Assembly (NCBI GenBank): GCA_023245035.1
Contig: JAHFLD010000002.1
Span: 1,501 to 65,500, forward strand
Reading direction: 5' to 3'
DNA length: 64,000 nt
Origin: Candidatus Harrisonbacteria bacterium
GTDB lineage: Bacteria > Patescibacteriota > Minisyncoccia > UBA6257 > 1-14-0-10-40-38
The notes beneath the pieces are model-generated. The model was not told the origin of the DNA, did no database searches, and saw only the letters and a program-made list of their open reading frames with translations. Positions 6,001-25,356 of the stretch are shown here, in pieces. Within the stretch, counting starts at the first letter, position 1. Each line of letters opens with the position of its first letter. A program made the translations under genes and the position numbers.

Positions 6001-6729
6001 AAGGTTTTTTACGGTAAAATTGTGGCCGCGATCGCGGTGGTTAATAACCTTTTTGTGCACACGGTTACCATCTTGCCGGATGGCGAGCTTGCGGTGCCCG
6101 AGGGCGCGAATCAGATTTCCGGAACTGCGACTATTCAGTCCGGCGCTTCGGAGGTGACGATTTACAACACCAAGGTTACTTCTACTAGCAAGATATTTAT
6201 TACTCCGACAACATTGACCAGTTTGCCGCTTTCGGTGACCAATAAGACGTCGGGGCAGAGCTTTACGGTTAGCGTTCAGGGTACCTTGGTTAATTCGATA
6301 GACTTTGATTGGCTGATAATCGGAGCCTATCCTGCTGGTTTGGGAAATCCGCAGACGCAGCAGAATCAGGCGCCCAATAATTCGGGTGGACAGAGCGGTA
6401 ATTCCGGAGGCCTGGCTCCAGATCAGAATCTTGGCAATGGTTCAGGCGGGGATTCTACCGGTGGAACCGGGGCGGTGATTGTTCCGCCGCCGGATTCGCC
6501 CTTAACGCCACCGGATAGTGGATTAAATAATTCTTCGGGAGACGGTTCTTTGCCGATAATTCCGCCTCCAGATGCCGGACAAGTTAATTCACCGCCAGAT
6601 GCGGGAGTTTCAGCGCCGCCCCCAGATAATGGTTCGGGGCAAGTAACTCCACCACCGGACGCGGGAGTGAATAGCGGTGGCGCTGGCAGCGGGGAGCCGC
6701 CGGATGCCGGTTCGGCGCCGAATCCGTAA
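1..6729 (+). CDS. Very large repetitive S/T/N/G-rich cell-surface protein, 5'-truncated; two ConA/LamG-like lectin modules and a proline-rich C-terminal tail
   Basis: The reading frame is open from base 1, and bases 1-190 repeat bases 3211-3400, so the protein starts upstream of the window. The listed TTG at 88 is probably not the true start. It has ~22-aa periodic repeats (ASTTITNLxTVNATSTNATSTSLYVSG) and IGIGTTTPSAALAVNGS-type motifs. Two blocks end in DYVKLWADDP / LRLWNDDP, resembling ConA-like lectin/LamG folds. The C-terminus carries PPDAG repeats. Antisense ORFs in the track are low-complexity artefacts. Confidence 0.8.
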   Translation, partial: AVSGLLTLYSGFISSASSSVSSNLNVSGALNASSTLAVGGIATLTGLVSTASSTLLNVSNLSGTNATTTNLYVTDVASLNGASTTITNLVTVNASSTNSTTTNFYIGNGFVSNGSTSASSTILGRLNIPQSGSAVGVSISGVSTGSGLLLGAPTTGKSIDVTAGSLTSGSVLSYSGNTNGTFGTRSGNYINIVPTRNLTSSDSTNSGSFINLEERLQNTGTGIMSITGTLITASSTCFGSGQCYDGGGLILLRQNNANATGTVARLISNASSTVLLSLENAANVLYSIAPTTSSSTSITIRTGGAATTTIPDLYTNIWSIATNTASTPVFTISTLSGPRIGIGTTTPSAALAVNGSFYVTGRSIADVLLATSIGIGTSSPAATFSIHGNELISGTTTVGGIVATSSIDTSNKSGFTWLTASGLNALVFATNTQGTSGQYPIFSIGATTTSNGGLDYARVAVGTTTDALNNGLREQFTVAGRLRQTWAVYDNDFMSVGGGNPGAAIANSDTANVINGAFHFDSEGQCQLTQIPSTNTVGNSKGIIGLRASSGTGTTAPGNGCILSAAANTGATSSPVFETKVAMSATNNSHAFVGLGYVSAVGGDANASSTFEVGFKYGTSSNWFAEANDNGTATMVDTGVVPSTSAFQTLRFEFDSNSKVSFFIDGVLRGVITTNIPSGSMGMLFKLEQTIDTSNPGMSIDYVKLWADDPPGGNGPNSGGGGNDPNFNLPPNLSSLDMIYQSAVVERYNTAVNALNYPLGTVMAFDATSSPVYAGVYVKPAATTYGDLVMGVVAHNEAAKIELGFGNLPLVKSGRGYVRVQGQVNAGDLLTISTTPGVAEKANNSNLLLGRALTAVGNSGLVLADIEIKHESSTTTYSNAVFTQSSFTSATTTNATSTSLYVSGALRVATTTAGLGSVFALQGNALFSGDLSLANLIATGTTRFGGITYTWPTTQSAACLKNDGAGVLSWGSCGGASGSQTPWAQNIDASGFSLSNVTNITATGSLLVANATSTITNLTTVNATSTNATSTTLYVSGSAIFAGASTTITNLNATFASLVSTGGVFASGTGAVSGLLTLYSGFISSASSSISSNLNVSGALNASSTLAVGGLATLTGLQSTASSTLLNVTNFSGTNGTTSNEAITGSLAVTGASSSIANLNLVNATSTTLYTSGQFLAGGASNTILGTLYGSTFNPQTLTSTGSVNASGTLAVSGLASLYSGFISSASSSVSSNLNVSGALNASSTLAVGGLATLTGLQSTASSTLLNVSNFTATNGTTTSATSTSLYVSGSLGVNGASTTITNLVTVNATTTNATSTSLYVSGALRVATTTAGLGSVFALQGNALFSGDLSLANLIATGTTRFGGITYTWPTTQSAACLKNDGAGVLSWGSCGGASGSQTPWAQNIDASGFSLSNVTNITATNSILIAASGGNIGGQLSVVATSTDSMLFMGRAASGQTGHLFALQDSSGVNLFSVSATGNTFASSSLQVSATTTLYGDIVLDYTTTDRPRVLKIGAPNGNPRGLWIATTTGAALNTPGTWPLLVVQSTTTGMLDYARVGIGTSTTWGEAGLRDQLTVAGRAYTTWQYASCDFAGASLTAAVAAATSNVCGPFGFFIHQAGSLSPGTTTPTYVKLNSTGGSIGQGAMLGTVPNFISATTSPVLEAWVSVTSITNGHYQVGFFGATSTTWDPAWQMNNGIFFVAEQNLNGGNWTAVNKRTNIDGTVASTTIDTGIPGASGFSASGVAQYRRLRIEVSTSTIYYLINGRIVAQLSTTTPSRNLTPAVTVASVYAAARKDLNLRLLRLWNDDPVGGEVVGAPALDDSTPEVSDLDRNHTAGKFFFTGTTTPPEGSLVSYDYGASTHKSGLWVGYATTTYESGLAGVVASEGNSALRFGSGDIDVALSGKAMVRVSAVNGEIHAGDYLTSSEVPGVAVKATQSGWIIGQAFESYSGGGEGAVLANIAPEFMTVDKQSASGVIDSITETVSELADFVAQNSAKLVKVFYGKIVAAIAVVNNLFVHTVTILPDGELAVPEGANQISGTATIQSGASEVTIYNTKVTSTSKIFITPTTLTSLPLSVTNKTSGQSFTVSVQGTLVNSIDFDWLIIGAYPAGLGNPQTQQNQAPNNSGGQSGNSGGLAPDQNLGNGSGGDSTGGTGAVIVPPPDSPLTPPDSGLNNSSGDGSLPIIPPPDAGQVNSPPDAGVSAPPPDNGSGQVTPPPDAGVNSGGAGSGEPPDAGSAPNP

Positions 6730-6829
6730 GTCTTGCCGATGGGGATGGCTTGGCTTGAACTCTGTTTCCGATCTGTTAAACTTTATCCATTGAAGCTATT
6801 TTGGTTCACATAAATTATTTAATAAACTT

Positions 6830-7249
6830 ATGAAAAAAGATAAAATTATTTTTTCGCTGGTTCTTTTAGTGGTCGTGATTATGCTTGGTATTTTTTGGAA
6901 GACAGGTTCAATCTCTTTGACCGGGGATGAGGCGGTGAAGGCGGTTTTTTTGGCGAACGGGCAGGTTTATTTCGGCAAGGTCAGCGCCCAGAACAGCCAG
7001 TTTCTTCGCTTGACCGATATTTTTTATTTACAGGTTAGTCAGACGTTGCAGCCGCCGCAATCCGGCGTTCAGCCCCAGCAGAAAATTGATCTGGTGAAGT
7101 TGGGCAATGAGTTGCATGGGCCGCAGGATTTGATGGAGATTAACCGCGACCAGATATTATTTATTGAGAAGCTTCGCGATGATTCTAAAATTCTTAAGGC
7201 CATCCATGATTTTAAGAATCCTGGTACAAGTGGCCAGCCGGCTAATTAG
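6830..7249 (+). CDS. Hypothetical membrane-anchored protein (N-terminal TM helix)
   Basis: 139-aa ORF with N-terminal hydrophobic helix FSLVLLVVVIMLGIFW. No recognisable catalytic motif. Confidence 0.5.
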   Translation: MKKDKIIFSLVLLVVVIMLGIFWKTGSISLTGDEAVKAVFLANGQVYFGKVSAQNSQFLRLTDIFYLQVSQTLQPPQSGVQPQQKIDLVKLGNELHGPQDLMEINRDQILFIEKLRDDSKILKAIHDFKNPGTSGQPAN

Positions 7250-8036
7250 TGTTTTTCGCCGATCAGTTTTCGGAACAGGGGGGTTGTGGTTAATCCCTCT
7301 GTTTCTTGTTTTTTGGTTGGTGACACCGGTTTTGGCCACGGACTTTTCGGGAACGAATTTTATTATCAAGGATCCCGTGTTGAACGGTTCTTCCGGCTCG
7401 GCCACTTCCAGCAGTTTTGGTTTGCGGGGAACAATCGGGGAGCTTGGCGTGGGGCTTGGAACTTCAACTAACTTTGGTCTTCGCTCCGGTTCGCTTTATT
7501 TTCCGACACCGCCAAGCCCAAGCCCATCACCAACGCCGAGCCCATCGCCATCGCCAAGTACCGGCGGCAGTCCGTTTATTCCCCAGGTAGGAGTCGTGCC
7601 GCCGCTTTCGGCTAATATTTTGGTGAACTTGGCGAATATTATTCCGGTTTCCAATTGCAAGAATCCGGCTTTGAGGCGTTCGGATTATAATTGCGACGGC
7701 AAGGTAAATTTGAGAGATTTAAGCATTCTTTTTTCGGCTTCAGTTAAAAACGTGGCGCGCAATTTGAGCTTCTTGTTCTCTGACTGGACCGAGATTTTGC
7801 CGCGCTTTGCCACGCCGGAGACCTCCTCGCCAAAACAAATTGCCACGACACCGACGAATTTTGGCCGCGGGGTTTCGCCGACATCCCAGTTGGCGCAAGT
7901 GGGCGGAGCCGCTCAACGACCGGTTGATCTTCCTTCCTCTGGTGTGCAGTCTTTTTTTGGTAAGGTTAAGCAGTTGGTTAAGGATGTCTTATCTTTAGTA
8001 TTAACTGTTTTTCGCCTGTTGCCATTTCGGTTTTAG
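7164..8036 (+). CDS. Secreted Pro/Thr-linker protein with a single dockerin-like calcium-binding repeat; start uncertain
   Basis: Signal-peptide-like segment LWLIPLFLVFWLVTPVLA, then a PSPSPSPTPSPSPSPS linker and the motif DYNCDGKVNLRDLSILF, which matches the dockerin D-x-N-x-D-G-x-V-N-x-x-D consensus. The ATG at 7164 overlaps the previous ORF; TTG 7284 is an alternative start. Confidence 0.5.
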   Translation: MRSFAMILKFLRPSMILRILVQVASRLISVFRRSVFGTGGLWLIPLFLVFWLVTPVLATDFSGTNFIIKDPVLNGSSGSATSSSFGLRGTIGELGVGLGTSTNFGLRSGSLYFPTPPSPSPSPTPSPSPSPSTGGSPFIPQVGVVPPLSANILVNLANIIPVSNCKNPALRRSDYNCDGKVNLRDLSILFSASVKNVARNLSFLFSDWTEILPRFATPETSSPKQIATTPTNFGRGVSPTSQLAQVGGAAQRPVDLPSSGVQSFFGKVKQLVKDVLSLVLTVFRLLPFRF

Positions 8037-8082
8037 TCTTTTTCTCACAGGCCGAGATCGGCAGATACTATATACTAGTGGG

Positions 8083-9339
8083 GTGGCTATTCGTCGGATT
8101 GTTTTGGTTGGGTGTTGTTCTTTAATGTTTTTTGCCGCGCCCTTAGCTTTGGCGGCTACTATGCGGCTGACTCCGGCTACGGGAAGCTTTATTTTGGGCA
8201 GCACTTTTGACTTAGCGGTCGTAATGAATACCGGCGGAGTAGCGGTTAACACCATTGAGGCCGACTTGCGTTTTCCTCCGGATAAACTTCAACTGGTTAA
8301 TCCATCGCTCGGAAAATCAATCGTACAGATTTGGGCCAGTCCGCCGACCTATTCCAATCAAGAGGGGCGAATTTATTTTATCGGCGGGATTCCGTCGCCG
8401 GGAATTACGACCTCGGAGGGCATTGTTCAGTCGTTTACCTTTCGGGTAACGGCTCCCGGAGCGGCACAGATTGATTTCGGCAAAAATAATTCTATTTTGG
8501 CGAACGATGGGTTGGGGACTAATGTTCTACAGCAAACTTCGCCAGCTTCGTTTCGGCTGTTGTTGCCACCGGCGCAGGGTCCGAAGATTTTTTCGCCATC
8601 GCATCCGGAGCAGGGCAAGTGGTACAAGGATCCCAATCCAATTTTTCAATGGGAGGCTTCGCCGGGAACCAATGGTTTTAGCTATGCTTTGGATCATGAT
8701 CCCAATGGCGCGCCGGATAACGTGGTGGAGACTGCCGAGGCGCAGGCATCGTTTACCGCCATCGAAAGCGGGGTTTGGTATTTTCATGTCAAAGAGCGGG
8801 CGGGTAACAGCTGGAGCGGGGTCAGCCATTTTTTTGTTAATCTGGACACATTGCCTCCGGCAGAGTTTGGCGTTAAGGCTTCGCCGGGATTGCGGACTTC
8901 CAACAAGAGTCCGATTCTGCGATTTTTTACCACGGATTCGTTGTCGGGATTTGATCATTTTGAGTTGAAGTCGGTGGCGCTAAAAGACGGCCCGAGCCAG
9001 TCTTCGTTTTTCTTTGAGGCATCCAGTCCATATCAACTTTCCGGTTTAAAAAGCGGGCGTTATGAAATTGTGGTCCGGGCTTACGACAAGGCCGGCAACT
9101 TTCGCGATGAATCGGTGACAATGAATATTCTTTCTTCGCTTGTCCAATTTGTGAGTCCGGAGGGAGTGGATTTTGTCTTGTTCTTTGTGCCCTGGGCCAG
9201 ATTCATCCCGACGCTCTTGGTGTTTTTGGTTTTCTTAGTCGGTTTTGTGATTTTTGTGTTGCACCGGCATCATCACCACCTACGGCATATTATTCGCGAG
9301 GATTTGCAGATTAAAAAACCTCGCCCCGGAAGGCGATAA
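8083..9339 (+). CDS. Membrane-anchored cohesin-like / FN3-like surface protein with C-terminal TM helix and His-rich tail
   Basis: Signal peptide MFFAAPLALAA. The N-terminal ~140 aa (TGSFILGSTFDLAVVMNTGGVAVNTIEADLRFPPDKLQLVN...) resemble a cohesin beta-sandwich. FN3-like repeats follow, then a C-terminal TM helix (LLVFLVFLVGFVIFVL) and HRHHHH. Confidence 0.5.
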   Translation: MAIRRIVLVGCCSLMFFAAPLALAATMRLTPATGSFILGSTFDLAVVMNTGGVAVNTIEADLRFPPDKLQLVNPSLGKSIVQIWASPPTYSNQEGRIYFIGGIPSPGITTSEGIVQSFTFRVTAPGAAQIDFGKNNSILANDGLGTNVLQQTSPASFRLLLPPAQGPKIFSPSHPEQGKWYKDPNPIFQWEASPGTNGFSYALDHDPNGAPDNVVETAEAQASFTAIESGVWYFHVKERAGNSWSGVSHFFVNLDTLPPAEFGVKASPGLRTSNKSPILRFFTTDSLSGFDHFELKSVALKDGPSQSSFFFEASSPYQLSGLKSGRYEIVVRAYDKAGNFRDESVTMNILSSLVQFVSPEGVDFVLFFVPWARFIPTLLVFLVFLVGFVIFVLHRHHHHLRHIIREDLQIKKPRPGRR

Positions 9340-9343
9340 AATT

Positions 9344-10075
9344 ATGCGACGATTTTCAATCATCTTATTCTTGGTGTTGCTATTGTCCGCTCGTGACGTT
9401 CCGTTTGTTTTGGCGGAGGATCGAGAGATTCCGCAGCCGTCGGTGACGGTAGTGCCGGATTACTACTATCCCTTTGAGGAATTTTTGCATTTAGAGGGAC
9501 GAGCGGAGCCACGAGCGATTGTGAGCGTGGAGCTCGAGAGACAGGCCGAAAAGCCGGTTAAGTTTACGGTTTCCGCCGATTCAGCCGGGGAATGGGTAGT
9601 GTGGCCGACCAGCCGAGTTTACCTCTCCGCCGGTTCCTGGGTGGTTCGGGCGCGCCAGCAAGTAGGGACTTCAACCGGTTTTTCTGATTGGTCTAATCCG
9701 CAAGTTATTCAATCGGTGATCACCGGATTTACGATTTTTGGAATCAACGTGCGCTATGCCTTGATCGGGGTTATCTTATTCGTCTTTGTTCTTATTTTGG
9801 CTTTTGTTTTCTTTTACTTCGCGAGAAAGATTCGCCGTTTAAAGCGCCAGGTTTTTGAGAAGCGCTTGCGGGAGACGACGGATCAAGTGCGGCGAGGTTT
9901 TTCGGAAATTCATAAAGATTTGATGCAGGAGCTTTTAATGCTGACCACGAAGGCGCAGACTCAGCCATTGTCCCCGGAAGAAATTCAACGCAAAGATCAT
10001 GTGTTGCGCGAGCTGGAAGAGTTGGAAAAAAATGTCAGTGACGGCATGGCGAACATGAATCGCGATATTGATTGA
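9344..10075 (+). CDS. Hypothetical secreted protein, single-pass membrane, cytoplasmic coiled coil
   Basis: Internal ATG at 9344 gives MRRFSIILFLVLLLSARDVPFVLA (signal peptide). A TM helix (IGVILFVFVLILAFVFFYF) follows, then a basic stretch and a coiled-coil tail. Confidence 0.55.
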   Translation: MRRFSIILFLVLLLSARDVPFVLAEDREIPQPSVTVVPDYYYPFEEFLHLEGRAEPRAIVSVELERQAEKPVKFTVSADSAGEWVVWPTSRVYLSAGSWVVRARQQVGTSTGFSDWSNPQVIQSVITGFTIFGINVRYALIGVILFVFVLILAFVFFYFARKIRRLKRQVFEKRLRETTDQVRRGFSEIHKDLMQELLMLTTKAQTQPLSPEEIQRKDHVLRELEELEKNVSDGMANMNRDID

Positions 10076-10198
10076 TTTCGGTTAATCGGGTATGGTTTTT
10101 TTAGTAGTGTTTTTTTTGGTGGAGTAGCGGAATGGTTTGAGACGACAGTTTTGCTTTTCTGTAGTGGTCTCCTACAGGAGAAACTTACCGATCAGCGC

Positions 10199-10285
10199 GG
10201 AGGGGTGGCAGAGCGGTCTAACGCGCCGCACTTGAAATGCGGTATACCCGAAACGGTATCGTGAGTTCGAATCTCACCCCCTCCG
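10199..10285 (+). tRNA. tRNA-Ser (anticodon TGA), CCA not encoded
   Basis: GGAGGGG acceptor pairs with CCCCTCC. Anticodon stem-loop CCGCA-CTTGAAA-TGCGG, long variable arm, T-arm GTGAG-TTCGAAT-CTCAC. Confidence 0.85.
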
Positions 10286-10323
10286 CGCTGGGCAGTAAAC
10301 TAATACATTTTGGGTTGATCTCG

Positions 10324-10827
10324 TTATGTCGTTGAGTTTTTTTCCGACTTTATATCCACGGCATCTTGCAAAATACCTTCCAATACATTGGCGGTGGCGG
10401 CAGTAACGAAAGAGATAAAAATTATCAAAAGACCAATAAAAACACCGCCTGCGATGTCATCGCCAGGCCGAACTATAAATAGATAAGCTTCTGTCGTCGC
10501 ATCAAAACCGATAATAGTCATCGCGCAGTATTTTATGGTGCGCAGGGCTTTTACGGAGTTTTGGGAAAATACTTTATTTTTTGCTACGTATCCCAAAAGC
10601 TTGAGCGCCTGATAAATCGCTATGAAAAAGGCGATAGAGGCAGCGTAGGCGTAGGCCAAAAATGGATCGTTGAAGTAAATTTCAAAAAGCGTGGCTTGGG
10701 CGTTTCTGCCTTCGATGTGCGGTTCCCAAAGCATAAAAGCCAGAGCGCCGATGCCGATGAGAACTATGACTATTCGAAGAAATATAATAGAACTTCGTTT
10801 TGTAAATCCCGATTTTAGGATGATCAT
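10324..10827 (-). CDS. Hypothetical polytopic membrane protein
   Basis: 167 aa with four hydrophobic helices. No catalytic motif. Confidence 0.55.
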   Translation of the reverse strand: MIILKSGFTKRSSIIFLRIVIVLIGIGALAFMLWEPHIEGRNAQATLFEIYFNDPFLAYAYAASIAFFIAIYQALKLLGYVAKNKVFSQNSVKALRTIKYCAMTIIGFDATTEAYLFIVRPGDDIAGGVFIGLLIIFISFVTAATANVLEGILQDAVDIKSEKNSTT

Positions 10828-10940
10828 AATTTAATCTTAATTTAGTGCTTGTCGTTTATCAATTTAGAGGTGGTTTGCTTAAGAGCTGGTTTGATGTTAC
10901 GATTCGGGCGTCTACGGTTTTTGATTTTTGGGGGAGTCGA

Positions 10941-11219
10941 ATGACCAAGGAACAAATCGGTGCCTTGTTGCGTCTTTATCTCGAAAAGTTGCAGGGGATG
11001 CATATCCCGCGGAGAAGTCTTTCGCTCACCGCGGTGCTGGGTCCAGATTCAGCAGGGGCGGCGCTGGCTCATTGCCACCAGATGCTTACCGAAATGCAAG
11101 TTTTTCTGGCCGAAGATCGGATGGATAAGCTTTTTCGCTGGTTGGGTTTTGTGCAGGGATGTTTTTGGTCAGCCGGACTTTTTACGATTGATGAGATGAG
11201 AGAACACAACCGCTCTTAG
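10941..11219 (+). CDS. Hypothetical small protein
   Basis: ATG at 10941 preceded by GGGGAG. Product MTKEQIGALLRLYLEKLQG... The longer track ORF from 10845 is probably 5' over-extension. Confidence 0.45.
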   Translation: MTKEQIGALLRLYLEKLQGMHIPRRSLSLTAVLGPDSAGAALAHCHQMLTEMQVFLAEDRMDKLFRWLGFVQGCFWSAGLFTIDEMREHNRS

Positions 11220-11481: not shown

Positions 11482-13212
11482 ATGTTCTTGGATAAGGCGT
11501 TTCTGGATCGGGCAATACCGATTGCTCGACAGTTCGTAAGAGCCCCAGTTCCGTATCAGTTTTCGGTTCGCGAGACTGAAGCCCTGAAATTGTTTTTTAC
11601 CAGTGCGACTTCGAGAGTTTTTTTCTTCCGGAATATGCCGCCGAATTTTTCGGCGGCGCTGCTCGCGATGTATTCGCGGCTCAAGAATCAGCGAGGGATT
11701 CGCGGTCATTTTGTTGATACGCTCTTGCCGCTTTTGCTAACGGGGCTTTTGGAGAATTTCTCCGAAGTTTCGCCAAGCGGAGCGATTCATGCCTATCAGG
11801 CTTATCTGACCGGATTGGGCATTAGGTCGCTTGATCAGTTCTGCGAAGCCAAGATAGAGCATCTGGCGGTATTTAAGGATTTCGTGGCGAATGCCACGGG
11901 CGATCCACGACTTGAAAAACAGTTGGCGGATTCACCGAAGATGAAGGCGTTGCTTGATGTGTTTTTGGACAAGTACGGGCACAATTCCATCGCGCGCGGA
12001 GCGGCTCTCACGTTCGCAGTGGAAGACATTTCCATTCTCGCGGCCAAGTCCATTGAGTGGAATCGTCCGGGTTCGGGGTTTATTGAGTTGAGCACGCGGT
12101 TTGTGGATATTTCGCGCGCCAGACAGTATCCAATCTGGGACGAGATTGCCTTAGTTTGCGAAGAGGCGGCGTGCGCGGCCAGAGAGGCGATTGTTCAGGC
12201 GAGCGCGGCTTATCGAACCTTGATTGGTGTGGCGTTTGACGGAATCTTGCCGAAGTTTTTTGAGCAACACTTCGCCCCGCTTTTGCCGGTCAAGGACTTG
12301 AAGTCCGCGGTTCAGGGCGAGGCGTGCGACGTGGCGGGCAATGTTTTGCCGTGCGCGACTTTGACTTCGGTTGGGGTGGCGATTTCCGGCGAGGCTTTTG
12401 ACTCTCTGCTTAAGCATCTGTTGCTTGACGCGACTCCGGAGAACTTTGCTCTGGTTGAATTGATTTTGGCCGAAGCCGCGAAGGTTGGCGGGGATCAGTT
12501 TGCCCGACACTACGAGCCGTCGCCGTGGGAAGTTGAGGGGTGGAGATACTTATCCTCGCAGAATATCATCCAAGGTTTCGGCACGACTTCGCTCTTGATT
12601 GCCGAGGATGTTTTGTGGAATTATTTTCGTTCCGATGGCACGTCCAACGGTTCCGCGGTGTTTGAAGATGTGCTGAGAAAGTTGCCGTTTGAAGAGAGGG
12701 GAGAACACGATCGCTTGCCCTATCATTTTGAAACGGTTTTTGGCACTAGCTTTGGAAAGATGTCTTTTCGTGGTTGGCGAGATTTGCAGAGGCATGTGCT
12801 CGCGACTCACGCGCGGACATTGGTTGATCCGAGTCTCGGTTTTTACCATTACGACAAGCCGGCACCCACCGAATTGGCCGACGTGTTTGACGAGATTCAC
12901 CTGATGAATCGAGCCACGTGGACGGCACTCTGCGGTCGCGGAGTCGCTCCGCTTATCGCGCAGTATGCCATGGCGATGGGTAATCTGGTTGGATTCCTGT
13001 GCGGTGCCAATTTGCGCGAATGGGAGTTCATCCTGTGGCAGAGAAGCGACTTTCAAGTGAATCACGAGGTGCGACAGGTGGCGCTGGGGATTGATCGCGC
13101 CCTGCAGATTCAGTTTCCGTGGTGGCGAAAAATTTCCCGTACCGATCTGACTCCGGCTTATGTGGCCGCTCGTAGTGAAGTTGGCGTGCCGTTGCCGACA
13201 AGTGTTGGTTGA
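11482..13212 (+). CDS. Hypothetical 576-aa protein, bracketed by TACGAAT direct repeats; weak tandem ThyX-like signature (speculative)
   Basis: GGAG RBS 5 nt upstream of the ATG. Two halves carry faint TFAVEDIS...ELSTRF and SFRGWRDLQRHVLATHART segments, reminiscent of the ThyX TFxxEGxS...RHR...SQRY signature. No confident assignment. Confidence 0.5.
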   Translation: MFLDKAFLDRAIPIARQFVRAPVPYQFSVRETEALKLFFTSATSRVFFFRNMPPNFSAALLAMYSRLKNQRGIRGHFVDTLLPLLLTGLLENFSEVSPSGAIHAYQAYLTGLGIRSLDQFCEAKIEHLAVFKDFVANATGDPRLEKQLADSPKMKALLDVFLDKYGHNSIARGAALTFAVEDISILAAKSIEWNRPGSGFIELSTRFVDISRARQYPIWDEIALVCEEAACAAREAIVQASAAYRTLIGVAFDGILPKFFEQHFAPLLPVKDLKSAVQGEACDVAGNVLPCATLTSVGVAISGEAFDSLLKHLLLDATPENFALVELILAEAAKVGGDQFARHYEPSPWEVEGWRYLSSQNIIQGFGTTSLLIAEDVLWNYFRSDGTSNGSAVFEDVLRKLPFEERGEHDRLPYHFETVFGTSFGKMSFRGWRDLQRHVLATHARTLVDPSLGFYHYDKPAPTELADVFDEIHLMNRATWTALCGRGVAPLIAQYAMAMGNLVGFLCGANLREWEFILWQRSDFQVNHEVRQVALGIDRALQIQFPWWRKISRTDLTPAYVAARSEVGVPLPTSVG

Positions 13213-13459: not shown

Positions 13460-14194
13460 TTAAGCTCTGGCGGCGACGAGAGCGATAATGTTTTTTCCGC
13501 CGGCGCGTTTGATGGTGAGCGCGGCTTCGCGCAGAGTGGCGCCGGAGGTCGTGACGTCATCTACAAGAATTATATTTTTTCCGCGAACTTGTTCCGGTTT
13601 TTTTATGAGAAAGCTGTGCTGAATGTTTAGGACGCGTTCGGCGCGACTTACGCATTCGGCTTGGGGCTTGATGTAGCGAACTCGCCGGAGGGTGGAAGAG
13701 TTTATCGGCAAGCCGGTTTTCTGCGCAAAGCGGCGGGCCAAAAGTTCCGCCTGGTTGAAGCCCCGGATCTTGAGGCGGCGGCGATGCAGGGGGAGTGGGA
13801 TGACTAGCGGGTTTTTTGTTTGATTAGCGACTTCCTTCCAGTAGCGGGACATCAGGTGCGCCAAAGGGCGGGCCGCGACTGTCTGGCCCCGATATTTTAA
13901 TTGCCAGATTAGTCTTTGAACAGTCTCGTTTTCATATTTAGCGGCGGCGGCGAGCAGGTAGGGGCTTTCGGGGTGGCAGATTTTTTTACCGTCGGGGAGG
14001 CGGGCGCCGCAGATGGCGCATTCAAGCGCGTCGCCAAGTTTAATGTTTTCTTCGCAGGCCGCGCAAAGATTGTAGGTTTTGCGAAGATCCGCGACGACGG
14101 TTTCGCAGACTACGCAAAGTGGCGGGAAGATCAGATCAACGGCTGTTGCGGCGAGGCGCCGGAAGACGCTCATGGTATACTTTGAATATATCAT
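13460..14194 (-). CDS. comFC: Competence protein ComFC (phosphoribosyltransferase-type, N-terminal zinc finger)
   Basis: N-terminal CxxC...CxxC pairs and C-terminal PRTase motif ILVDDVTTSGATL. Divergent from pilM with only 8 bp between start codons. Confidence 0.8.
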   Translation of the reverse strand: MIYSKYTMSVFRRLAATAVDLIFPPLCVVCETVVADLRKTYNLCAACEENIKLGDALECAICGARLPDGKKICHPESPYLLAAAAKYENETVQRLIWQLKYRGQTVAARPLAHLMSRYWKEVANQTKNPLVIPLPLHRRRLKIRGFNQAELLARRFAQKTGLPINSSTLRRVRYIKPQAECVSRAERVLNIQHSFLIKKPEQVRGKNIILVDDVTTSGATLREAALTIKRAGGKNIIALVAARA

Positions 14195-14202
14195 TTTGAG
14201 CT

Positions 14203-15276
14203 ATGTCATTTTTGGAATCGCTAATTCACCACAAGCAGTTTTTTAGTTTGGATATCGGCACCACTTCCATGAAGGCGGTTGAGATGACCCGCCAGGGAGA
14301 GACGTTTGCTTTGAAAAATTACGCGATTCTGGAAACTTTCGGTTATTTGGAGCGTTCCAACAACGCTTTGCAAACCAGCAATCTGAAACTTTTGGAAAAT
14401 GAAGTGGCTTTGTATTTGTCGCTGCTTTTAAAGCGCTTGAATCCGACTTCCGGCGCGGCGGTGCTGTCGGTGCCGACTTTTTCCACTTTTTCCACTTTGG
14501 TAGAATTGCCGGCGGTGCAGGAGCATGAGATCGCTAAGATTATGCAGTACCAAGCGCAGCAATATATTCCGTTGCCGATTGCTTCAGTGACGGTGGACTG
14601 GATTAAGGTCGGGGAGCGAGTTGATGATTCGGGGGCGCGCAAGTTGCAGATTTTGCTAATGTCGATTGTTAACGATCACATTGAGAAGTATCGCAAGATT
14701 TTGCAGTCAGTTGGGATTAGGATGTTGGGAGTGGAGGTTGAGGGTTTGAGCTTGGCAAGAGCGCTGACATCCGGATCTAAAGAGCCGACCTTGATTTTGG
14801 ACATTGGCGGGCGTTCTACCGGTATTTTTGTGGCCCAGGAGGGTTTTTTGAAGTTTGCCGGACAGACTGATTTTTCCGGCGGATCGCTCACGCAGACCAT
14901 TTCCACCGGGCTCACGATCTCACCGCGCCGTTCCGAGGATCTGAAGCGAGAGCGCGGTTTGCTGGGTTCCGGCGGGGAGCAGGAGTTATCCACACTAATT
15001 GAGCCGATTTTGGATGTTATAATTGCCGAAGGAGTGCGGGTTCGGACGAATTACGAAAAGGCCTATCAGCAAACCGTAACCAGGGCGATTCTTTCCGGCG
15101 GCGCTTCCAATCTTTTGGGTATTGAGGAATATTTTACCCGAGAGCTTGGGTTGCCGACGACCAAGGCCGATCCTTTTAAATTCGTGACTTATAACCAGGC
15201 ACTGGCTCCGGTGGTCAAAGATCTGGGTCCGCATCTTTCGGTAGCCGTGGGTCTTGGCATGAAGGATCTCCGTTAG
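14203..15276 (+). CDS. pilM: Type IV pilus assembly ATPase-fold protein PilM
   Basis: Actin-like fold motifs FSLDIGTTSMKAV and LILDIGGRSTGIFV. Sits upstream of PilN/PilO-like genes. Confidence 0.8.
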   Translation: MSFLESLIHHKQFFSLDIGTTSMKAVEMTRQGETFALKNYAILETFGYLERSNNALQTSNLKLLENEVALYLSLLLKRLNPTSGAAVLSVPTFSTFSTLVELPAVQEHEIAKIMQYQAQQYIPLPIASVTVDWIKVGERVDDSGARKLQILLMSIVNDHIEKYRKILQSVGIRMLGVEVEGLSLARALTSGSKEPTLILDIGGRSTGIFVAQEGFLKFAGQTDFSGGSLTQTISTGLTISPRRSEDLKRERGLLGSGGEQELSTLIEPILDVIIAEGVRVRTNYEKAYQQTVTRAILSGGASNLLGIEEYFTRELGLPTTKADPFKFVTYNQALAPVVKDLGPHLSVAVGLGMKDLR

Positions 15277-15284
15277 CTTTTCAC

Positions 15285-15836
15285 ATGCCCCTTCCACAAA
15301 ATAATTTTAATATTAATTCCGGCGTCGCGCCGGCCGCGAGTGGCGGAACCTGGCGGCTTTTTTTGTTTTTTTTCTCCATCCTGATGCTTTTGGTGCTGGG
15401 TTATGTCGGCTTACTGTTCGGTTACAAGCCATATTTGAAGCGCGAGATCGTGGCGCGGGAGCAATCGCTGGCCGATTTGGCGGCCCAGGTTTCGCAAGCC
15501 GAACAGGAAGATTTTTTGAGTTTTTATTTTCAGCTGGTTGATATCAAAAATTTGCTTGCTTCGCATGTGATGTCTTCGCGGGCGCTTGGTCTGTTGCAGG
15601 CCAGGGTCGTACCGAGGGTTTATTTTTCCAATCTCACTTTTAGCTCGCTTGAAAGCAAGTTGACGATTGAGGCCTTTGCCGATTCTTACGATTCTTTCAC
15701 CGAACAGTTGCAGGCTTTTGCCACCACTAAGGAGATTGCTTCATACGCGGTCAGCAACGCGGTGCAAGACAAGGGGTTGGTTAAGTTTCAAGCGGTGCTA
15801 ACACTTAAGCCGGAGGCCTATAAAAATAAGAATTGA
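15285..15836 (+). CDS. pilN: Type IV pilus assembly protein PilN-like (single TM)
   Basis: N-terminal TM helix then periplasmic coiled-coil domain. Position between pilM and pilO. Confidence 0.6.
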   Translation: MPLPQNNFNINSGVAPAASGGTWRLFLFFFSILMLLVLGYVGLLFGYKPYLKREIVAREQSLADLAAQVSQAEQEDFLSFYFQLVDIKNLLASHVMSSRALGLLQARVVPRVYFSNLTFSSLESKLTIEAFADSYDSFTEQLQAFATTKEIASYAVSNAVQDKGLVKFQAVLTLKPEAYKNKN

Positions 15837-15839
15837 TAT

Positions 15840-16424
15840 ATGCGCGCTTCAACCCAACGGATCTACGTTTTTCTTTTAAGCCTGTTTTGCTTCGTGGCCT
15901 CGTTTGTGGTCTACGCTCTTTTGCTCAAGCCGGCTTATGCCGATTTGAATATGTTGCGCGGTATTTTGAGTTCCAAAACCGAGGCGCTGGACGTACATGG
16001 ACAGATCGCCCTAAAAGTTAAGGATCTCATCGCCAACTACAAGGGAGTCCAAAATCTGCAGGAAAATATTTCGCTCGCTCTGCCCAAAGAGCAGTCCCTC
16101 GCGACGCTTTATAATCAGTTTTATGCCTTGGCCAGCGATACCAATCTAAATTTGAAGTCACTTTCCGCTGGCGCGGGAACTTTGCGGGCGACCTCCGAGG
16201 ATCGCAGTACTTCACAGACTCCGGCCAAGGTCGGAACCGTGCAGGTGACTCTGACTCTTGCCGGAACTTACGAAGCTTTTAGAAATTTTTTGGAGAAACT
16301 GGAGACTAATATTCGCATTTTGGATGTGGCCAGTTTTACCGTGGCGGCGCCACAGGGGCAATCAAGGAGCGCTAATTCATTCGATTTTACAGCGATCGTC
16401 GTTGCTTATTACCAATCGAGATAA
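15840..16424 (+). CDS. pilO: Type IV pilus assembly protein PilO-like
   Basis: N-terminal TM helix (YVFLLSLFCFVASFVVYALLL). Position in the pilMNO cluster. Confidence 0.55.
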   Translation: MRASTQRIYVFLLSLFCFVASFVVYALLLKPAYADLNMLRGILSSKTEALDVHGQIALKVKDLIANYKGVQNLQENISLALPKEQSLATLYNQFYALASDTNLNLKSLSAGAGTLRATSEDRSTSQTPAKVGTVQVTLTLAGTYEAFRNFLEKLETNIRILDVASFTVAAPQGQSRSANSFDFTAIVVAYYQSR

Positions 16425-16429
16425 ATATT

Positions 16430-16723
16430 ATGGCCATTGTCTTTGAAAAAGAAAAAAAGAGATTTAACTGGTTCGCGATTCTGCTGACGCTGGTGGTTTT
16501 GGTTTTTGTCGGCGCCGCGGCTTATTATCTTTTTTTCGCCCCGTCCCCGAAAATTGAGGCGATTATTCCCAAGGAGTTGCAGCGCGCGGGCGAGGTGTCG
16601 CAGATTGATTTTACCGACCCGTCGTTTGTGATTAACAGCCAGGCTTATCGCAATCTTCGGCTTTATGTCGGTACGCCGGTTTTGGGGAGTCTAGGACGGA
16701 ATAATCCATTTTTGCCGTTATGA
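16430..16723 (+). CDS. Small membrane protein in pilus cluster (possible PilP-like)
   Basis: 97 aa, single TM helix (FAILLTLVVLVFVGAAAYYLFF). Located between pilO and pilB. Confidence 0.45.
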   Translation: MAIVFEKEKKRFNWFAILLTLVVLVFVGAAAYYLFFAPSPKIEAIIPKELQRAGEVSQIDFTDPSFVINSQAYRNLRLYVGTPVLGSLGRNNPFLPL

Positions 16724-16786
16724 TCAGTCCCTGGTATTTGCCACATTTTTGCCTACGCCGGACAGGTCTTTATTCATAACTTATTC

Positions 16787-18520
16787 ATGGACGACAAGGC
16801 ACTTTTTGACGCGTTGGTTTCGCAAGGGTCGCTCAAGCGGGAGGCGGCCGATTTATTATTGCGGGAGGCGCAGTCTATCAAACGGCGGCCGGAGGATTTG
16901 CTTTATAGCCGCCGGCTGGTAGATGACGGTGAAGTGGCTCGACTGAAGAGCGCTTTGCTAAAAATCCCGTATAAAAAAGTTGATCTTGACGCGGTTACGC
17001 CCGAGGTTTTGAAATCAATTCCGGGAGAAACCGCGCGAACTTATCGGATTGTTCCGATTGCCCGAAGCCAGGATTTGCTGGTGGCGGGGATGTTGAATCC
17101 CGACGACAACGCGGCGCGAGAGGCGTTGCGTTTTTTGGCCAAACAACAGCGAATCAATTTGGGCGTTTATGTTGTCTCCGCGTCGGATGTTGAATCGGTC
17201 CTCAAAAAATACTTCTTGTTTGGCGAAGATATCGCGGCGGCCCTTCAGTCAATGAACCTGAAGCCGGGAGAGGGTCTGACGGATATTCAAAGAATCGTAA
17301 AATTAGAGGAGGGAATGACCGAAAACGACAAGGCGCCGGTTATCCGCATCGTAAGCTCATTGCTCAAAGAGGCGGTAAATATCGGAGCGTCTGATATTCA
17401 TATTGAACCGGGGCGATCCAAACTGCGAGTGCGTTTTAGGATTGATGGCAGTTTGCGTGAAGTCTCGGCCTTGCCGGTGGAATTGCAGCAGCCAGTTATT
17501 TCCAGGGTAAAAGTTTTATCCAGCTTGAAATTGGACGAGAATCGAATGCCCCAGGACGGACGTTTTCGCAGTATTATTTTTGACCGCGAGATTGATTTTC
17601 GCGTGGCGACTTTTCCGACGCCGAATGGCGAGAAGGTGGCCTTGCGCGTGCTCGATCCCACGACCGGACTTAAGAGTCTGGATGATTTGGGCGTGGCCGG
17701 CAGGAATTTGGAAATTTTAAAGGCGGGGCTAGCCAAGCCTTATGGCGCGGTTTTGCTGACCGGTCCGACCGGTTCGGGAAAGACCACAACGCTTTATGCT
17801 TTGATGCAGATTCTAAACAAGCAGGAGGTTAACATTGTGAGCTTGGAGGATCCGGTGGAGTACACGCTCGACGGAGTTAACCAATCACAGGTTAAGCCGG
17901 AGATTGGTTATGATTTTGCTTCGGGTTTGAGGGAGATCTTGCGCCAAGATCCGGATATTATCATGGTTGGTGAAATCCGAGACAAGGAGACCGCCGAGCT
18001 TTCGGTGCACGCCGCTTTAACCGGACACATTGTGCTGGCCACCTTGCACACTAACAGCGCGGCCGGAGTCATTCCGCGTTTGGTGGACATGGGCGTGGAG
18101 CCGTTCTTGTTGCCGTCGGCGCTCAACCTGATGGCCGCTCAGCGTTTGGTTGGTCGATTGTGTTCCAAATGCCGCAAGGCCGAAGACCCATCGCCGCAGC
18201 TTTTGGAAATAATCAAAACAGAGCTCAAGCTAATACCGCCAGAGGCGGTGTCTAGCTTGGCAACGCCATATAAGATTTATCACGCGCCGGGTTGCAGCGC
18301 GTGCGGTGGCAAGGGAATCGTGGGACGCGTCGCGATCTTTGAAGTTTTCCAGATGACGCCCCAACTGGCCGATGTTCTGAATTCTGGAATCAATGAAAAT
18401 AAGATTTTGGAAGAGATGCGCCGCCAGAAGACGGTTTTTCTGCGATCCGATGGAATTCTTAAGGCTTTGCAGGGTTTGGTGCCGATTGAAGATGTGCTCA
18501 AGGAAACCAAGGAGTCTTAA
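16787..18520 (+). CDS. pilB: Type IV pilus assembly ATPase PilB (GspE family)
   Basis: Walker A GPTGSGKTTT. Asp/His boxes. C-terminal tetracysteine CSKC...CSAC. Confidence 0.9.
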   Translation: MDDKALFDALVSQGSLKREAADLLLREAQSIKRRPEDLLYSRRLVDDGEVARLKSALLKIPYKKVDLDAVTPEVLKSIPGETARTYRIVPIARSQDLLVAGMLNPDDNAAREALRFLAKQQRINLGVYVVSASDVESVLKKYFLFGEDIAAALQSMNLKPGEGLTDIQRIVKLEEGMTENDKAPVIRIVSSLLKEAVNIGASDIHIEPGRSKLRVRFRIDGSLREVSALPVELQQPVISRVKVLSSLKLDENRMPQDGRFRSIIFDREIDFRVATFPTPNGEKVALRVLDPTTGLKSLDDLGVAGRNLEILKAGLAKPYGAVLLTGPTGSGKTTTLYALMQILNKQEVNIVSLEDPVEYTLDGVNQSQVKPEIGYDFASGLREILRQDPDIIMVGEIRDKETAELSVHAALTGHIVLATLHTNSAAGVIPRLVDMGVEPFLLPSALNLMAAQRLVGRLCSKCRKAEDPSPQLLEIIKTELKLIPPEAVSSLATPYKIYHAPGCSACGGKGIVGRVAIFEVFQMTPQLADVLNSGINENKILEEMRRQKTVFLRSDGILKALQGLVPIEDVLKETKES

Positions 18521-18566
18521 GGCGCGCCCATGTGGTTGACGAGTGGCGCGGGTGTGAAGAACGTCT

Positions 18567-19667
18567 TTGGCCAGTCTGATATATACTTTAACTATGGATG
18601 CAATACAACAAAAATTAAGCGACTTGCTTTTGACCACGGCGCGGCAGAACGCTTCCGATTTGCATATTTCCGTTGGGCGCAAGCCGACCTTGCGGATTGA
18701 TGGAGTTTTGATTCCGCTCCAGAAGGAGCCGGCGATTACGCCCGAGGTTGCCGAGGGGCTGATTATGGCGCTTTTGACGCCGGAACAAAAGGAGCTTTTT
18801 TTGCAAAACAAGGAGTTTGATTTTTCTTTTGCTTTTGAAGATAAGGCCAGGTTTCGGGTGAATGTTTATAACCAGCGCGGATTTAAGGCGGCGGCTTTGC
18901 GTTTAATTCCGGCGGAGGTGCGAACCGTTGAGGCCTTGGGTTTGCCGCCGGTATTGCATGATTTTACCAAGTTATCGCAGGGCTTTATCTTGGTTGTCGG
19001 TCCGGCCGGACACGGAAAATCAACCACGCTCGCGGCTTTGCTTGACGAAATAAATCATAACCGGATGGATCATATTATTACCATTGAGGATCCGATTGAG
19101 TATTTATTCGTTCAGGATCGGGCGATTATTTCGCAACGCGAAGTAGGGGCGGACACGATGTCTTTTACGGCCGGGCTGCGATCTATTCTGCGACAGGATC
19201 CAGACGTGATTATGGTGGGCGAGATGCGCGATCCGTCTTCAATCGCGACGGCGATGACGGCGGCGGAGACCGGGCATTTGGTTTTTTCCACTCTGCATAC
19301 TAATTCGGCGGCGCAGACGATTGACCGGATTATTGATACTTTTCCAGCGGATCAACAAAGCCAGGTGACCTCGCAGTTGGCGGCGACCTTGGTAGCCATT
19401 GTTTCCGAGCGGTTGGTGCCGAGAGTAAACGGCGGACGGGTTCCGGCGTGCGAGATTATGATCGTCAATTCGGCGATTCGCAACTTAATTCGCGAGCGCA
19501 AGGCGTATCAGATTGATTTGGTGATTGAGACTTCTTTGCAAGAGGGCATGGTGACACTCAACCGCTCGCTTGCGACGCTCGTCAAGCGCAAAGAGATATC
19601 GCTGGAGAACGGGGAGCTTTACTCGATGAATCCATCCGAGCTTAAAATCTTGCTGGATAGAGTATAA
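18567..19667 (+). CDS. pilT: Twitching motility / pilus retraction ATPase PilT
   Basis: Walker A GPAGHGKSTT. Motifs IITIEDPIEY and MVGEMRD, ~360 aa. Confidence 0.9.
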   Translation: MASLIYTLTMDAIQQKLSDLLLTTARQNASDLHISVGRKPTLRIDGVLIPLQKEPAITPEVAEGLIMALLTPEQKELFLQNKEFDFSFAFEDKARFRVNVYNQRGFKAAALRLIPAEVRTVEALGLPPVLHDFTKLSQGFILVVGPAGHGKSTTLAALLDEINHNRMDHIITIEDPIEYLFVQDRAIISQREVGADTMSFTAGLRSILRQDPDVIMVGEMRDPSSIATAMTAAETGHLVFSTLHTNSAAQTIDRIIDTFPADQQSQVTSQLAATLVAIVSERLVPRVNGGRVPACEIMIVNSAIRNLIRERKAYQIDLVIETSLQEGMVTLNRSLATLVKRKEISLENGELYSMNPSELKILLDRV

Positions 19668-19756
19668 ATATAAGTTACTAATGTGCGAATAATTAAGAAT
19701 ATACGAATGTACTTTTTTCGCATCATTCGCATTATCAATTTTCGCATCGGTCTTCT

Positions 19757-20965: not shown

Positions 20966-21279
20966 GTTAAAACATCCGCATTCGGCGCATTTTTTTGTTG
21001 CGAGCTGTGGTGCTCAACGCAGTACTTGAATAAAGTACAGCTTATTCCGCTCCTCGCCTGCGCCTCAAACTGCGCACGAATGCGGATGTTTCAAGTCACG
21101 ATTGTCGTTCGCGCCTCGTATTTGTTCTTTTTAAATTAAGATACAGTATGCGAAAACTTTTTAGCCTGCCAAGCTTTCCATTCATTCTCCTCGCCCGCGC
21201 CTCAAACTGCATGCCCGAACGATTATATTTAGTCGGGCGGGCGCACGAACGCGGATGTTTCGAGACAACTCTTATTTTT

Positions 21280-21385
21280 CGCGAATTATTTTGTTGTTCG
21301 TTCCGTTACTCAGTCGGCGCACTTGGTTAAAGCGCGCCTTCCTCCTTACTCGCTCACTCCTTGTACTTCGCGAAAAATCTAGAAA
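21280..21385 (+). repeat. Conserved ~90-bp intergenic module, copy A (upstream of pilin genes)
   Basis: Aligns with 41725-41825 and 56598-56695: ...gtcgg-[hairpin]-cttcctcctt(t)actcg-ttactcct-gaact...aaaat. The hairpin sequence differs but base-pairing is preserved. Confidence 0.7.
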
Positions 21386-21662
21386 ATTCTTTGCTGTGTG
21401 TGTGTCGATTAGTAGATTATCTTTGCTTCTTGTCTTGTGTTTTATATTACAAACATAGGATTTGTTCATTATCTAAACCCTGTACCCTTCACCCTAGACC
21501 CTACCCAATGCCCTGTGAATATCTTAATTGCGGTGTTGGGTTTTTAGCGTGCTATAATTGGGTCAAATCTTTGAAAGGTCGGTTTCTCTTGTTTTGAGAA
21601 AGTTTAATTTCCAAAGATATAAAGATATTTTGATTATTCCGGTAAAAATTACTTAACTTACA

Positions 21663-22094: not shown

Positions 22095-22118
22095 GTTTTT
22101 ACTTGATTCCTTGGTCTG

Positions 22119-23467: not shown

Positions 23468-23605
23468 TCTAGAGTTTGCGAACCAGCCTTTGTTCTGGGA
23501 GCTGTGGCGGGCAGGTTTAAAAAATAGAAATGGCAAGACGGATGGGTGCAGACTTGTACGATGCTGTGTTTTGGTCTTTTGACCGGCGAGGATTATACTT
23601 AAGCT

Positions 23606-24229: not shown

Positions 24230-24235
24230 GCAGAT

Positions 24236-24817: not shown

Positions 24818-24826
24818 ATTAAGACC

Positions 24827-25348: not shown

Positions 25349-25356
25349 TTTTTATT

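Follow-up and report, generated by a model that had tools for sequence, protein, structure and literature searches.

The DNA considered here is a stretch of 64,000 nucleotides from a Candidatus Harrisonbacteria bacterium (GenBank assembly GCA_023245035.1, contig JAHFLD010000002.1, positions 1,501 to 65,500), referred to below as the window. Our subject is a run of three plus-strand genes within it, which encode a secreted protein with a dockerin-like segment (P1), a membrane protein with a cohesin-like N-terminal domain (P2) and a further membrane protein (P3). A preliminary description, made from the letters of the window, had proposed that the first two products form a minimal surface scaffold pair. 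That interpretation is partly supported by the homology, structure-model and gene-order comparisons described here, in that the domain identities hold at the family level. The window is ~50% G+C with a steadily positive GC skew and with genes mostly on the plus strand, and its proteins find their closest relatives in metagenome-assembled genomes of Patescibacteria (candidate phyla radiation, CPR) that are labeled Harrisonbacteria, Paceibacterota, Brennerbacteria, Magasanikbacteria and others. The coordinates of the features discussed are collected in Table 1.

Table 1. Features of the dockerin-cohesin locus, in positions of the window (aa, amino acids; AF2, AlphaFold2; ORF, open reading frame; Ig, immunoglobulin).
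Feature	Position	Strand	Basis
Giant repetitive surface protein, >2,242 aa	1..6729	+	ORF running off left window edge; cluster context gene
p139 (family f3), small protein with N-terminal transmembrane helix	6830..7249	+	Hydrophobic segment at residues 1-31
Gene 1 (P1), 276 aa, secreted Nd-linker-dockerin-tail protein	7206..8036	+	Identical database protein P0121
Nd module of P1 (residues 45-101)	7338..7508	+	Conserved N-terminal module common to P1 and PamT
Pro/Ser-rich linker of P1	7509..7571	+	Read from sequence; P/S/T/G-rich in all homologs
Degenerate dockerin of P1 (residues ~150-196)	7653..7793	+	One Ca2+ loop, helix 1, second helix without loop
C-terminal basic/amphipathic helix of P1 (residues 247-271), preceded by LAQV motif	7944..8018	+	AF2, pLDDT 83-85
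Gene 2 (P2), 418 aa, GTG start, type I membrane protein	8083..9339	+	Homologs, AF2, hydropathy
Cohesin domain of P2 (residues 25-162)	8155..8568	+	Pfam PF00963, AF2 beta-sandwich, Foldseek
Two Ig/FN3-like stalk domains of P2 (residues 166-258, 259-352)	8578..9138	+	AF2 beta-sandwiches; Foldseek matches to tandem FN3/Ig proteins
Transmembrane helix of P2 (~368-395) and His-rich HRHHHHLRH (9262-9288)	9184..9288	+	AF2 helix 371-395; hydropathy scan
Gene 3 (P3), 244 aa, P2 partner	9341..10075	+	Signal/transmembrane segment, Ig-like ectodomain, transmembrane helix, charged tail

Cohesin, dockerin and membrane-protein genes

The P2 product consists, in order, of a signal peptide, a cohesin domain, two Ig/FN3 domains, a transmembrane helix and a His-rich tail. 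At least 336 homologs were found; for several of them NCBI uses the name 'cohesin domain-containing protein', and precomputed PF00963 matches exist for many. An AF2 model of P2, built on 36 homologs, had a mean predicted local distance difference test score (pLDDT) of 86.5 and placed the signal-peptide helix at residues 2-17; by hydropathy the hydrophobic segments are residues 1-29 and 362-397. When the modeled N-terminal domain was compared with known structures using Foldseek, it matched type I cohesins (4ums, 6kgf_C, 2vn6_A, 1g1k_A and 5nrm_A, and also 4dh2 and 3ul4) with TM-scores of 0.72-0.79 and root-mean-square deviations of 2.4-3.0 Å over ~150 columns. Type II cohesins fit this domain less well (TM-score 0.55-0.57). 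As modeled, then, the fold is specifically that of a type I cohesin rather than a generic Ig fold, which bears out the cohesin-like strand pattern in the preliminary description. The FN3-like modules and the C-terminal membrane anchor with HRHHHH that had been noted there also appear in the model, as two beta-sandwiches (residues ~187-254 and 264-349, after that of the cohesin at 25-160), a transmembrane helix and a tail. For the stalk, Pfam gave sub-threshold matches to Big_13, Y_Y_Y and DUF7743, and the families PF07495, PF19077 and PF00041 are carried by homologs.

The His-rich motif occupies residues 394-402, next to the membrane on the predicted cytoplasmic side. A consensus W..HRHHL.HAF.ED with at least two His residues is present in 29 of 36 aligned P2 homologs and is missing in the most distant ones. 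Metal binding and contact with the P3 tail are both possible roles for this motif.

The P3 gene begins one base past the P2 stop codon. Two stretches of its product, residues 4-26 and 129-165, are hydrophobic, and its charged C-terminal tail is predicted to be helical or to form a coiled coil. In nearly all related loci the P3 gene lies 3' of the cohesin gene, and BLASTP revealed fusions of a P2 homolog with P3 in at least 16 database entries, which are 650-716 aa long; their residues 1-420 match P2 with 40-55% identity, and their residues 430-690 match P3, with E-values down to 5e-36. This fusion in other species indicates that P2 and P3 form one membrane unit. The His-rich motif of the fused proteins would fall in the loop between two transmembrane helices.

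For P1, the open reading frame itself opens at TTG 7164, where the preliminary description had begun the gene, but this is probably not the start, and database gene calls use ATG 7206. The signal segment comprises hydrophobic residues 20-48 followed by VLA|TDF. Homologs of P1 are few (11 by whole-protein search and 30 by profile search), and its AF2 model reached an overall pLDDT of 60. A Foldseek search with this model found nothing (4 matches, every E above 6), as is expected for a pLDDT of only 60.

The two reading frames and the dockerin-like motif are as first noted: the Ca2+ loop of P1, DYNCDGKVNLRD at 7683-7718, lies downstream of the linker PSPSPSPTPSPSPSPS. Loop positions 1, 3, 5, 9 and 12 all carry Ca2+ ligands (D160, N162, D164, N168 and D171), of which D160, N162 and D171 do not vary among 24 homologs, while at least 90% of these keep D164. 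Across the six frames of the window a strict dockerin-loop pattern turns up once, and it was seen in none of 200 dinucleotide-preserving shuffles. Alignments with two-repeat homologs (A2, A3) revealed that the second dockerin helix, NLSFLFSDWTE, is kept in P1 and that its Ca2+ loop is deleted, a loss common to P1 and its closest relatives. In relatives that occupy the equivalent place in the gene order, the dockerin is of the ordinary kind with two repeats, e.g. DLNCDGKINLQDLSIFLF...DFNRDTRVNIRDLSILFSDWTE. Because one intact loop and the second helix are kept, and because same-position relatives have both repeats, these alignments argue that the P1 segment is a genuine but degenerate, one-loop dockerin. 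The earlier term 'near-consensus' does not hold for the dockerin as a whole, which has a single loop in place of the two tandem repeats of a type I dockerin and a subthreshold Pfam score (see below).

Within the one-loop clade the SDWT motif, the first Ca2+ loop and both helices are strongly conserved, and the P2 cohesin domain is equally so. AF2 placed the dockerin helices of P1 at residues 169-177 and 180-195, with pLDDT of 79-89. In a search of the PDB with the P1 family profile (A3), 23 of the 25 matches were solved dockerins, the best being 4fl4_A (E=1.8e-4) and the second best 2jnk_A, a C. perfringens dockerin (E=4.4e-4). The preliminary description had allowed that the loop might be an isolated calcium site; its alignment with two-repeat dockerins and the 23 solved dockerins matched by the family profile speak against this.

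Most dockerins of the type found here (Nd-type, see below) also have a Cys at loop position 4 (DxNCDG) with a second Cys 4-12 residues upstream (P1 ~150-165, 7653-7700; A3). In the other cluster type the dockerins carry another Cys pair, VCxGADLN...CADIN. The Cys pairs probably form extracellular disulfide clasps.

After the dockerin, P1 continues in a tail of ~80 residues, in which a LAQV motif, itself conserved, precedes a basic amphipathic helix. The helix is conserved within the tailed subfamily, and a hydropathy scan for transmembrane segments did not retrieve it. The region at 7860-8036, which comprises an LAQV/LAEVG motif, a spacer of ~20-30 residues and the basic amphipathic C-terminal helix, has a layout (motif, spacer, hydrophobic helix, basic end) reminiscent of a C-terminal sorting signal; its spacing and motif match no known sortase or exosortase signal.

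Gene order and cluster types in Patescibacteria

A scan of one genome per species yielded 123 relatives of P2, for which 79 loci were retrieved, and hidden Markov models (HMMs) made from the dockerin segment, the N-terminal module of P1 and the cohesin domain were run on all open reading frames of these loci. In 1.08 Mb of related loci, 69 of 70 dockerin matches were on the strand of the first cohesin gene and directly 5' of it. Counted by locus, 64 of the 65 loci that extend 1.5 kb or more upstream show this arrangement of a dockerin gene immediately before the first cohesin gene, and most gaps between the two genes are between -124 and +127 bp. The window itself contains exactly one dockerin and one cohesin. 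The remainder of the dockerin protein differs between clusters (Nd, Ig or pilin-like), and the dockerin beside the cohesin is constant.

A gene order kept in 64 of 65 loci speaks strongly for dockerin and cohesin being a functional pair, and amounts to strong genomic evidence for joint action of the two modules. Because one dockerin gene adjoins the cohesin gene or genes in almost every related genome examined, the partner question appears to be close to settled by genomics. The 'minimal pair' of the preliminary description falls short of the whole, as the conserved unit is one of three genes, for the dockerin protein, the cohesin protein and the downstream membrane protein. Promoter and terminator counts in a scan of 6500-11000 were no higher than in shuffles, so that they add nothing to the operon call.

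Several individual loci deserve mention. The sole exception among the 70 dockerin matches is a second dockerin protein at 14153-15259 of locus L053, ~8 kb downstream of the cohesin genes. In a Harrisonbacteria locus (L001, 8939-10888), an extra 649-aa gene with no family match is inserted between the dockerin and cohesin genes; this is the only dockerin-cohesin gap of more than 2 kb. Two loci have four tandem P3 paralogs after the cohesin gene (L004, 7181-10000; L015, about 6.7-9.5 kb), and others have 2-5 tandem cohesin paralogs. The module expands by local duplication. Some public records of metagenome-assembled genomes that carry the cluster (L009, L022, L078 and many others) are titled 'uncultured Gammaproteobacteria' or 'uncultured Candidatus Saccharibacteria'; these labels look automatic and may be wrong.

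The N-terminal module of P1, which we call Nd, is related to the N terminus of PamT, the proposed tip subunit of the CPR 'Pam' pilus of Ca. Mycosynbacter amalyticus (bioRxiv 10.64898/2026.03.03.709456). In a search of 1.84 billion representative proteins, Nd was found in 148 representative clusters, each time directly after the signal peptide. The PamT model of NCBIfam (NF058579, an equivalog with a full-length cutoff of 240 bits) was matched by 115 of these 148 proteins, in each case at the N terminus only and with none near the cutoff (best E=4.5e-11). Dockerin_1 was matched by 55 of the 148 (E<=0.001) and the Pam pilin C-domain by 2. Despite its strong conservation, Nd has an AF2 pLDDT of ~43 and takes up no fold alone in the model, as would be expected of a segment whose folding depends on a partner.

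Two types of cluster could be distinguished by the genes that accompany the unit. The Nd type comprises 30 loci, the window included, with the order giant protein, p139 and/or another small protein, Nd-dockerin, cohesin, P3; a pilin-like family (f1) and a weakly WxL-interacting-protein-like family (f2) were never present in these 30 loci. The other type comprises 36 loci with 2-5 cohesin paralogs, of which 25 have f2 and 22 have f1, the f1 and f2 genes often lying behind a giant protein with a FISUMP domain. Among the dockerin proteins listed for this type, the majority start with a lone strand, TVNISVSAxV (e.g. TVNISVSAEV), which resembles the first strand of the adjacent pilin-like protein (ISVSATV.EW) and is followed at once by a Pro/Gly linker, then by Ig domains and a canonical C-terminal dockerin. 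In other loci of this type the dockerin protein is a paralog of the neighboring structural protein with a dockerin added; in L078 the two share 45% identity over 269 aa (E=3.5e-56).

Upstream of P1, the reading frame of the giant protein has no stop codon from position 1 to 88. Homologs of the giant protein accompany the cluster in 15 further loci, on the upstream side of the cohesin gene in 13 of them and on the downstream side in 2. The protein is highly repetitive and Ser/Thr/Gly-rich, ends in a tail of PPDAG repeats and contains a long internal duplication, in that the stretch starting ATSTSLYVSGALRVATTTAGLGSVFALQGNALFSGDLSLANLIATGTTRFGGITYTWPTTQSAACLKNDGAGVLSWGSCGG is present twice. The intervening small gene, p139, has homologs directly 5' of the Nd-dockerin gene in 15 further loci, is confined to Nd-type clusters and matched no Pfam or NCBIfam family. 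Downstream, a gene for a DUF2975 membrane protein (10324-10827, minus strand) marks the end of the cluster. It is followed by a gene for an unusually long ThyX-like protein (11482-13212, 576 aa), in which the Pfam Thy1 domain is matched in two stretches, and by a ComF-like gene (13460-14194, minus strand). The latter adjoins a complete type IV pilus cluster at 14203-25827, with PilM, PilO, PilB-like and PilT-like ATPases, PilC, a prepilin peptidase and several N-methyl pilins, one of which weakly matches ComP_DUS. The preliminary description had placed the pair next to giant adhesin and pilus genes. The giant protein does lie upstream, but the type IV pilus genes are ~4 kb away with unrelated genes on both strands between, and we rejected a functional tie to them. 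In one annotated related species (L001-L003), other genes and not type IV pilus genes are found downstream of the module.

A proposed fiber anchor and its alternatives

Together, these observations suggest that P1, P2 and P3 probably constitute a non-covalent membrane anchor and adaptor for a surface fiber. P2 would hold a type I-like cohesin off the membrane on its two Ig/FN3 domains, and P3 would be its partner in the membrane, adding a cytoplasmic tail. P1 would be exported via the Sec pathway, and its one-loop dockerin, using both helices, would plug in a Ca2+-dependent manner into the P2 cohesin, so that Nd, on its Pro/Ser linker, would thereby be tethered to the cell. Nd itself probably completes its fold by beta-strand complementation with a fiber subunit. 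At the window locus the candidate fiber is the adjacent giant protein, and in the sister clusters it may be the pilin-like proteins. P1 with P2/P3 would then be the base anchor of an extracellular fiber. We propose more tentatively, and with appreciable doubt, that the loci represent an undescribed, phylum-wide cohesin-dockerin system of Patescibacteria that anchors fibers, with an adaptor that would take up the fiber by beta-strand complementation and insert its dockerin into a cohesin stalk.

If this wider proposal is true, anchoring would take place in a cell without an outer membrane or usher, and P3 would reach into the cytoplasm. Depending on the cluster, the adaptor would join the fiber by Nd, by a lone donor strand or by a pilin-like domain. 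The whole would correspond, in modular and non-covalent form, to PamR or to sortase/usher anchoring, and the tailed one-loop dockerin would be a lineage-specific variant.

Several results weigh against the proposal of a fiber anchor made of P1, P2 and P3. In sequence searches both domains are marginal in the window proteins themselves. Pfam Cohesin (PF00963) scored 19.9 bits for whole P2 and 23.5 bits for the isolated domain (E=6.7e-5, profile positions 13-129 of 139), where the gathering threshold is 24.1 bits. Pfam Dockerin_1 (PF00404) gave no match to whole P1 and 14.7 bits to a P1 fragment (E=0.036, profile positions 35-52 of 57), where the threshold is 22.9 bits. The two families to which the preliminary description had pointed are thus both under threshold for P1 and P2, although relatives of each pass or match: the Cohesin threshold is passed by P2 homologs and paralogs, e.g. 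with 35.6 and 29.9 bits in sister locus L030, and Dockerin_1 is matched by 7 of 11 close P1 relatives (E<=0.01). A search of the PDB with the P2 family profile returned 5g5d_A as its only cohesin (E=0.065), and given so weak a search the cohesin call rests on structure together with the Pfam matches in relatives. In the P1 lineage the second Ca2+ loop is gone and a C-terminal amphipathic helix has been gained, which is a possible alternative means of attachment. Loci with 2-5 cohesin paralogs usually hold one dockerin gene, so that one-to-one pairing is not the whole story. As for the fiber, the giant protein matched no Pfam or NCBIfam family, and an acceptor domain was not detectable in it. 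The link to Pam pili is also weak: Nd of P1 matched the PamT model at positions 10-77 of 241 with E=5e-5 and 22.8 bits, P2 matched no Pam model, L030 gave weak matches to Pam_pilin_C (E=9e-4) and WxLIP_PGBD (E about 1e-4), and the window has neither pilins nor transmembrane-anchored chaperones of the Pam kind, in that HMMs made from the pilin-like (f1) and WxLIP-like (f2) proteins of sister loci matched nothing in it.

Part of this evidence would also be accommodated if the genes cooperated without contact between cohesin and dockerin. The P2 beta-sandwich would then bind a glycan or protein of the host surface, or another protein of the cluster, and the dockerin-like segment would be only a Ca2+-stabilized structural element of P1. 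The marginal sequence similarity to experimentally defined cohesins and the presence of up to five cohesin paralogs for one dockerin gene are in keeping with such an arrangement. However, gene order is near-invariant across very divergent species while the remainder of P1 varies, what is retained beside the cohesin is the dockerin, and the fold is specifically that of a type I cohesin, so we consider an arrangement without contact unlikely. It is also conceivable that the dockerin is here a decayed relic and that P1 attaches to the membrane through its new C-terminal amphipathic helix, or through P3, docking to the cohesin having been lost. The 70 dockerin matches in related loci divide into 13 one-loop and 57 two-repeat examples; a tail of more than 40 residues is found on 13 of 13 one-loop dockerins, whereas 46 of the two-repeat dockerins lie at the protein end and 11 have a tail, and the tail helix is confidently predicted and conserved, all of which would suit a relic. 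Yet the first loop, both helices and the SDWT motif of the one-loop clade are still strongly conserved, as is its cohesin, and the tail fails the transmembrane hydropathy scan. Moreover, 11 proteins unite a full two-repeat dockerin with the tail, which argues that the tail is no simple replacement for the dockerin, and decay to a relic seems to us quite improbable.

Chance resemblance, in which an isolated EF-hand-like loop happens to lie beside an unrelated beta-sandwich, would be consistent with the Pfam scores, both of which are under the curated thresholds. It is effectively refuted by the absence of the loop pattern from all shuffles, the clear homology to two-repeat dockerins, the good structural match of the cohesin and the synteny across loci.

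The genomic context points to a testable role, surface-fiber anchoring in ultra-small, host-dependent bacteria. Attachment structures are considered central to the lifestyle of these organisms and are only now being described, as in the Pam pili preprint of 2026. The locus also provides a natural one-loop dockerin with which the minimal requirements for cohesin binding could be studied, and through it PamT's N-terminal module is linked with a second architecture, one based on a dockerin.

Comparison with known systems

Cellulosomes are defined by a scaffoldin that bears at least two cohesins, along with dockerin-fused glycoside hydrolases (PMC13487519). We rejected a cellulosome or enzyme scaffold for this locus, because the window has one cohesin, one dockerin and no dockerin-bearing enzymes; no glycoside hydrolase or carbohydrate-binding module (CBM) was found among the window proteins scanned. 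A minimal cellulosome-like system is known from Cellulosilyticum lentocellum, in which the CBM-bearing cohesin protein ClcC is accompanied by a dockerin fused to a GH5 cellulase (PMC13487519). P1 and P2 resemble it as a reduced, two-component system of one cohesin protein and a dockerin partner, but no family search points to a catalytic or carbohydrate-binding function in either of them.

The occurrence of cohesin and dockerin modules outside cellulolytic clostridia is not in itself a novelty. The pair described here is similar to non-cellulosomal modules such as the dockerin of the C. perfringens toxin complex (2jnk/2ozn) in that the proteins concerned are non-catalytic or non-cellulolytic; it differs from them as a fixed syntenic operon unit across a superphylum, coupled to a third membrane protein. 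To our knowledge, few non-cellulosomal modules have an assigned partner or function, and most are without a demonstrated binding partner. The cataloguing of such modules outside cellulosome producers goes back to 2009 (Peer et al., FEMS Microbiol Lett 291:1, as cited in PMC13487519). A literature search for the two modules in Patescibacteria/CPR yielded nothing beyond an unrelated rumen survey, and the papers searched do not describe the conserved triad. The new elements are the dockerin-cohesin-P3 order, which is near-invariant across Patescibacteria, the dockerin variant with one loop, and the ties to PamT and to donor-strand-like adaptors.

The Pam system offers a comparison for the fiber end of the proposed anchor. 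PamR, which consists of an N-terminal strand, two FnIII domains and a transmembrane helix, is the proposed pilus terminator and membrane anchor, and a 'tail fiber-like' protein has been reported in Pam neighborhoods (bioRxiv 10.64898/2026.03.03.709456). P2 shares with PamR the layout of a stalk and transmembrane anchor, and has a cohesin where PamR has its strand; the giant fiber-like neighbor of P1 and P2 may be likened to the tail fiber-like protein. The resemblance of Nd to PamT covers the N-terminal third only. Pam homologs have been reported predominantly from Saccharimonadia and Microgenomatia, and neither cohesin nor dockerin is mentioned anywhere in the preprint (bioRxiv 10.64898/2026.03.03.709456). 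The cohesin-dockerin loci, in contrast, carry mostly Parcubacteria/Paceibacterota-type names.

By analogy, the module would work most like the cell-surface anchoring scaffoldins, e.g. ScaE of R. flavefaciens or OlpA and OlpC of C. thermocellum. In these proteins, as in SdbA of C. thermocellum, a single cell-bound cohesin docks a dockerin-bearing partner, as proposed here for P2. The P2 cohesin model matched the type I cohesins of OlpA and OlpC with TM-scores of 0.72-0.76; 3ul4 and 4dh2 are solved complexes of this group. Anchoring scaffoldins attach to the cell by S-layer homology (SLH) domains or by sortase, whereas P2 has its own transmembrane helix below an Ig/FN3 stalk. The P1 dockerin further differs from those of scaffoldin systems in having one Ca2+ loop and in carrying, as its cargo, a small non-catalytic module, in a setting where we found no CBM or dockerin-bearing enzymes.

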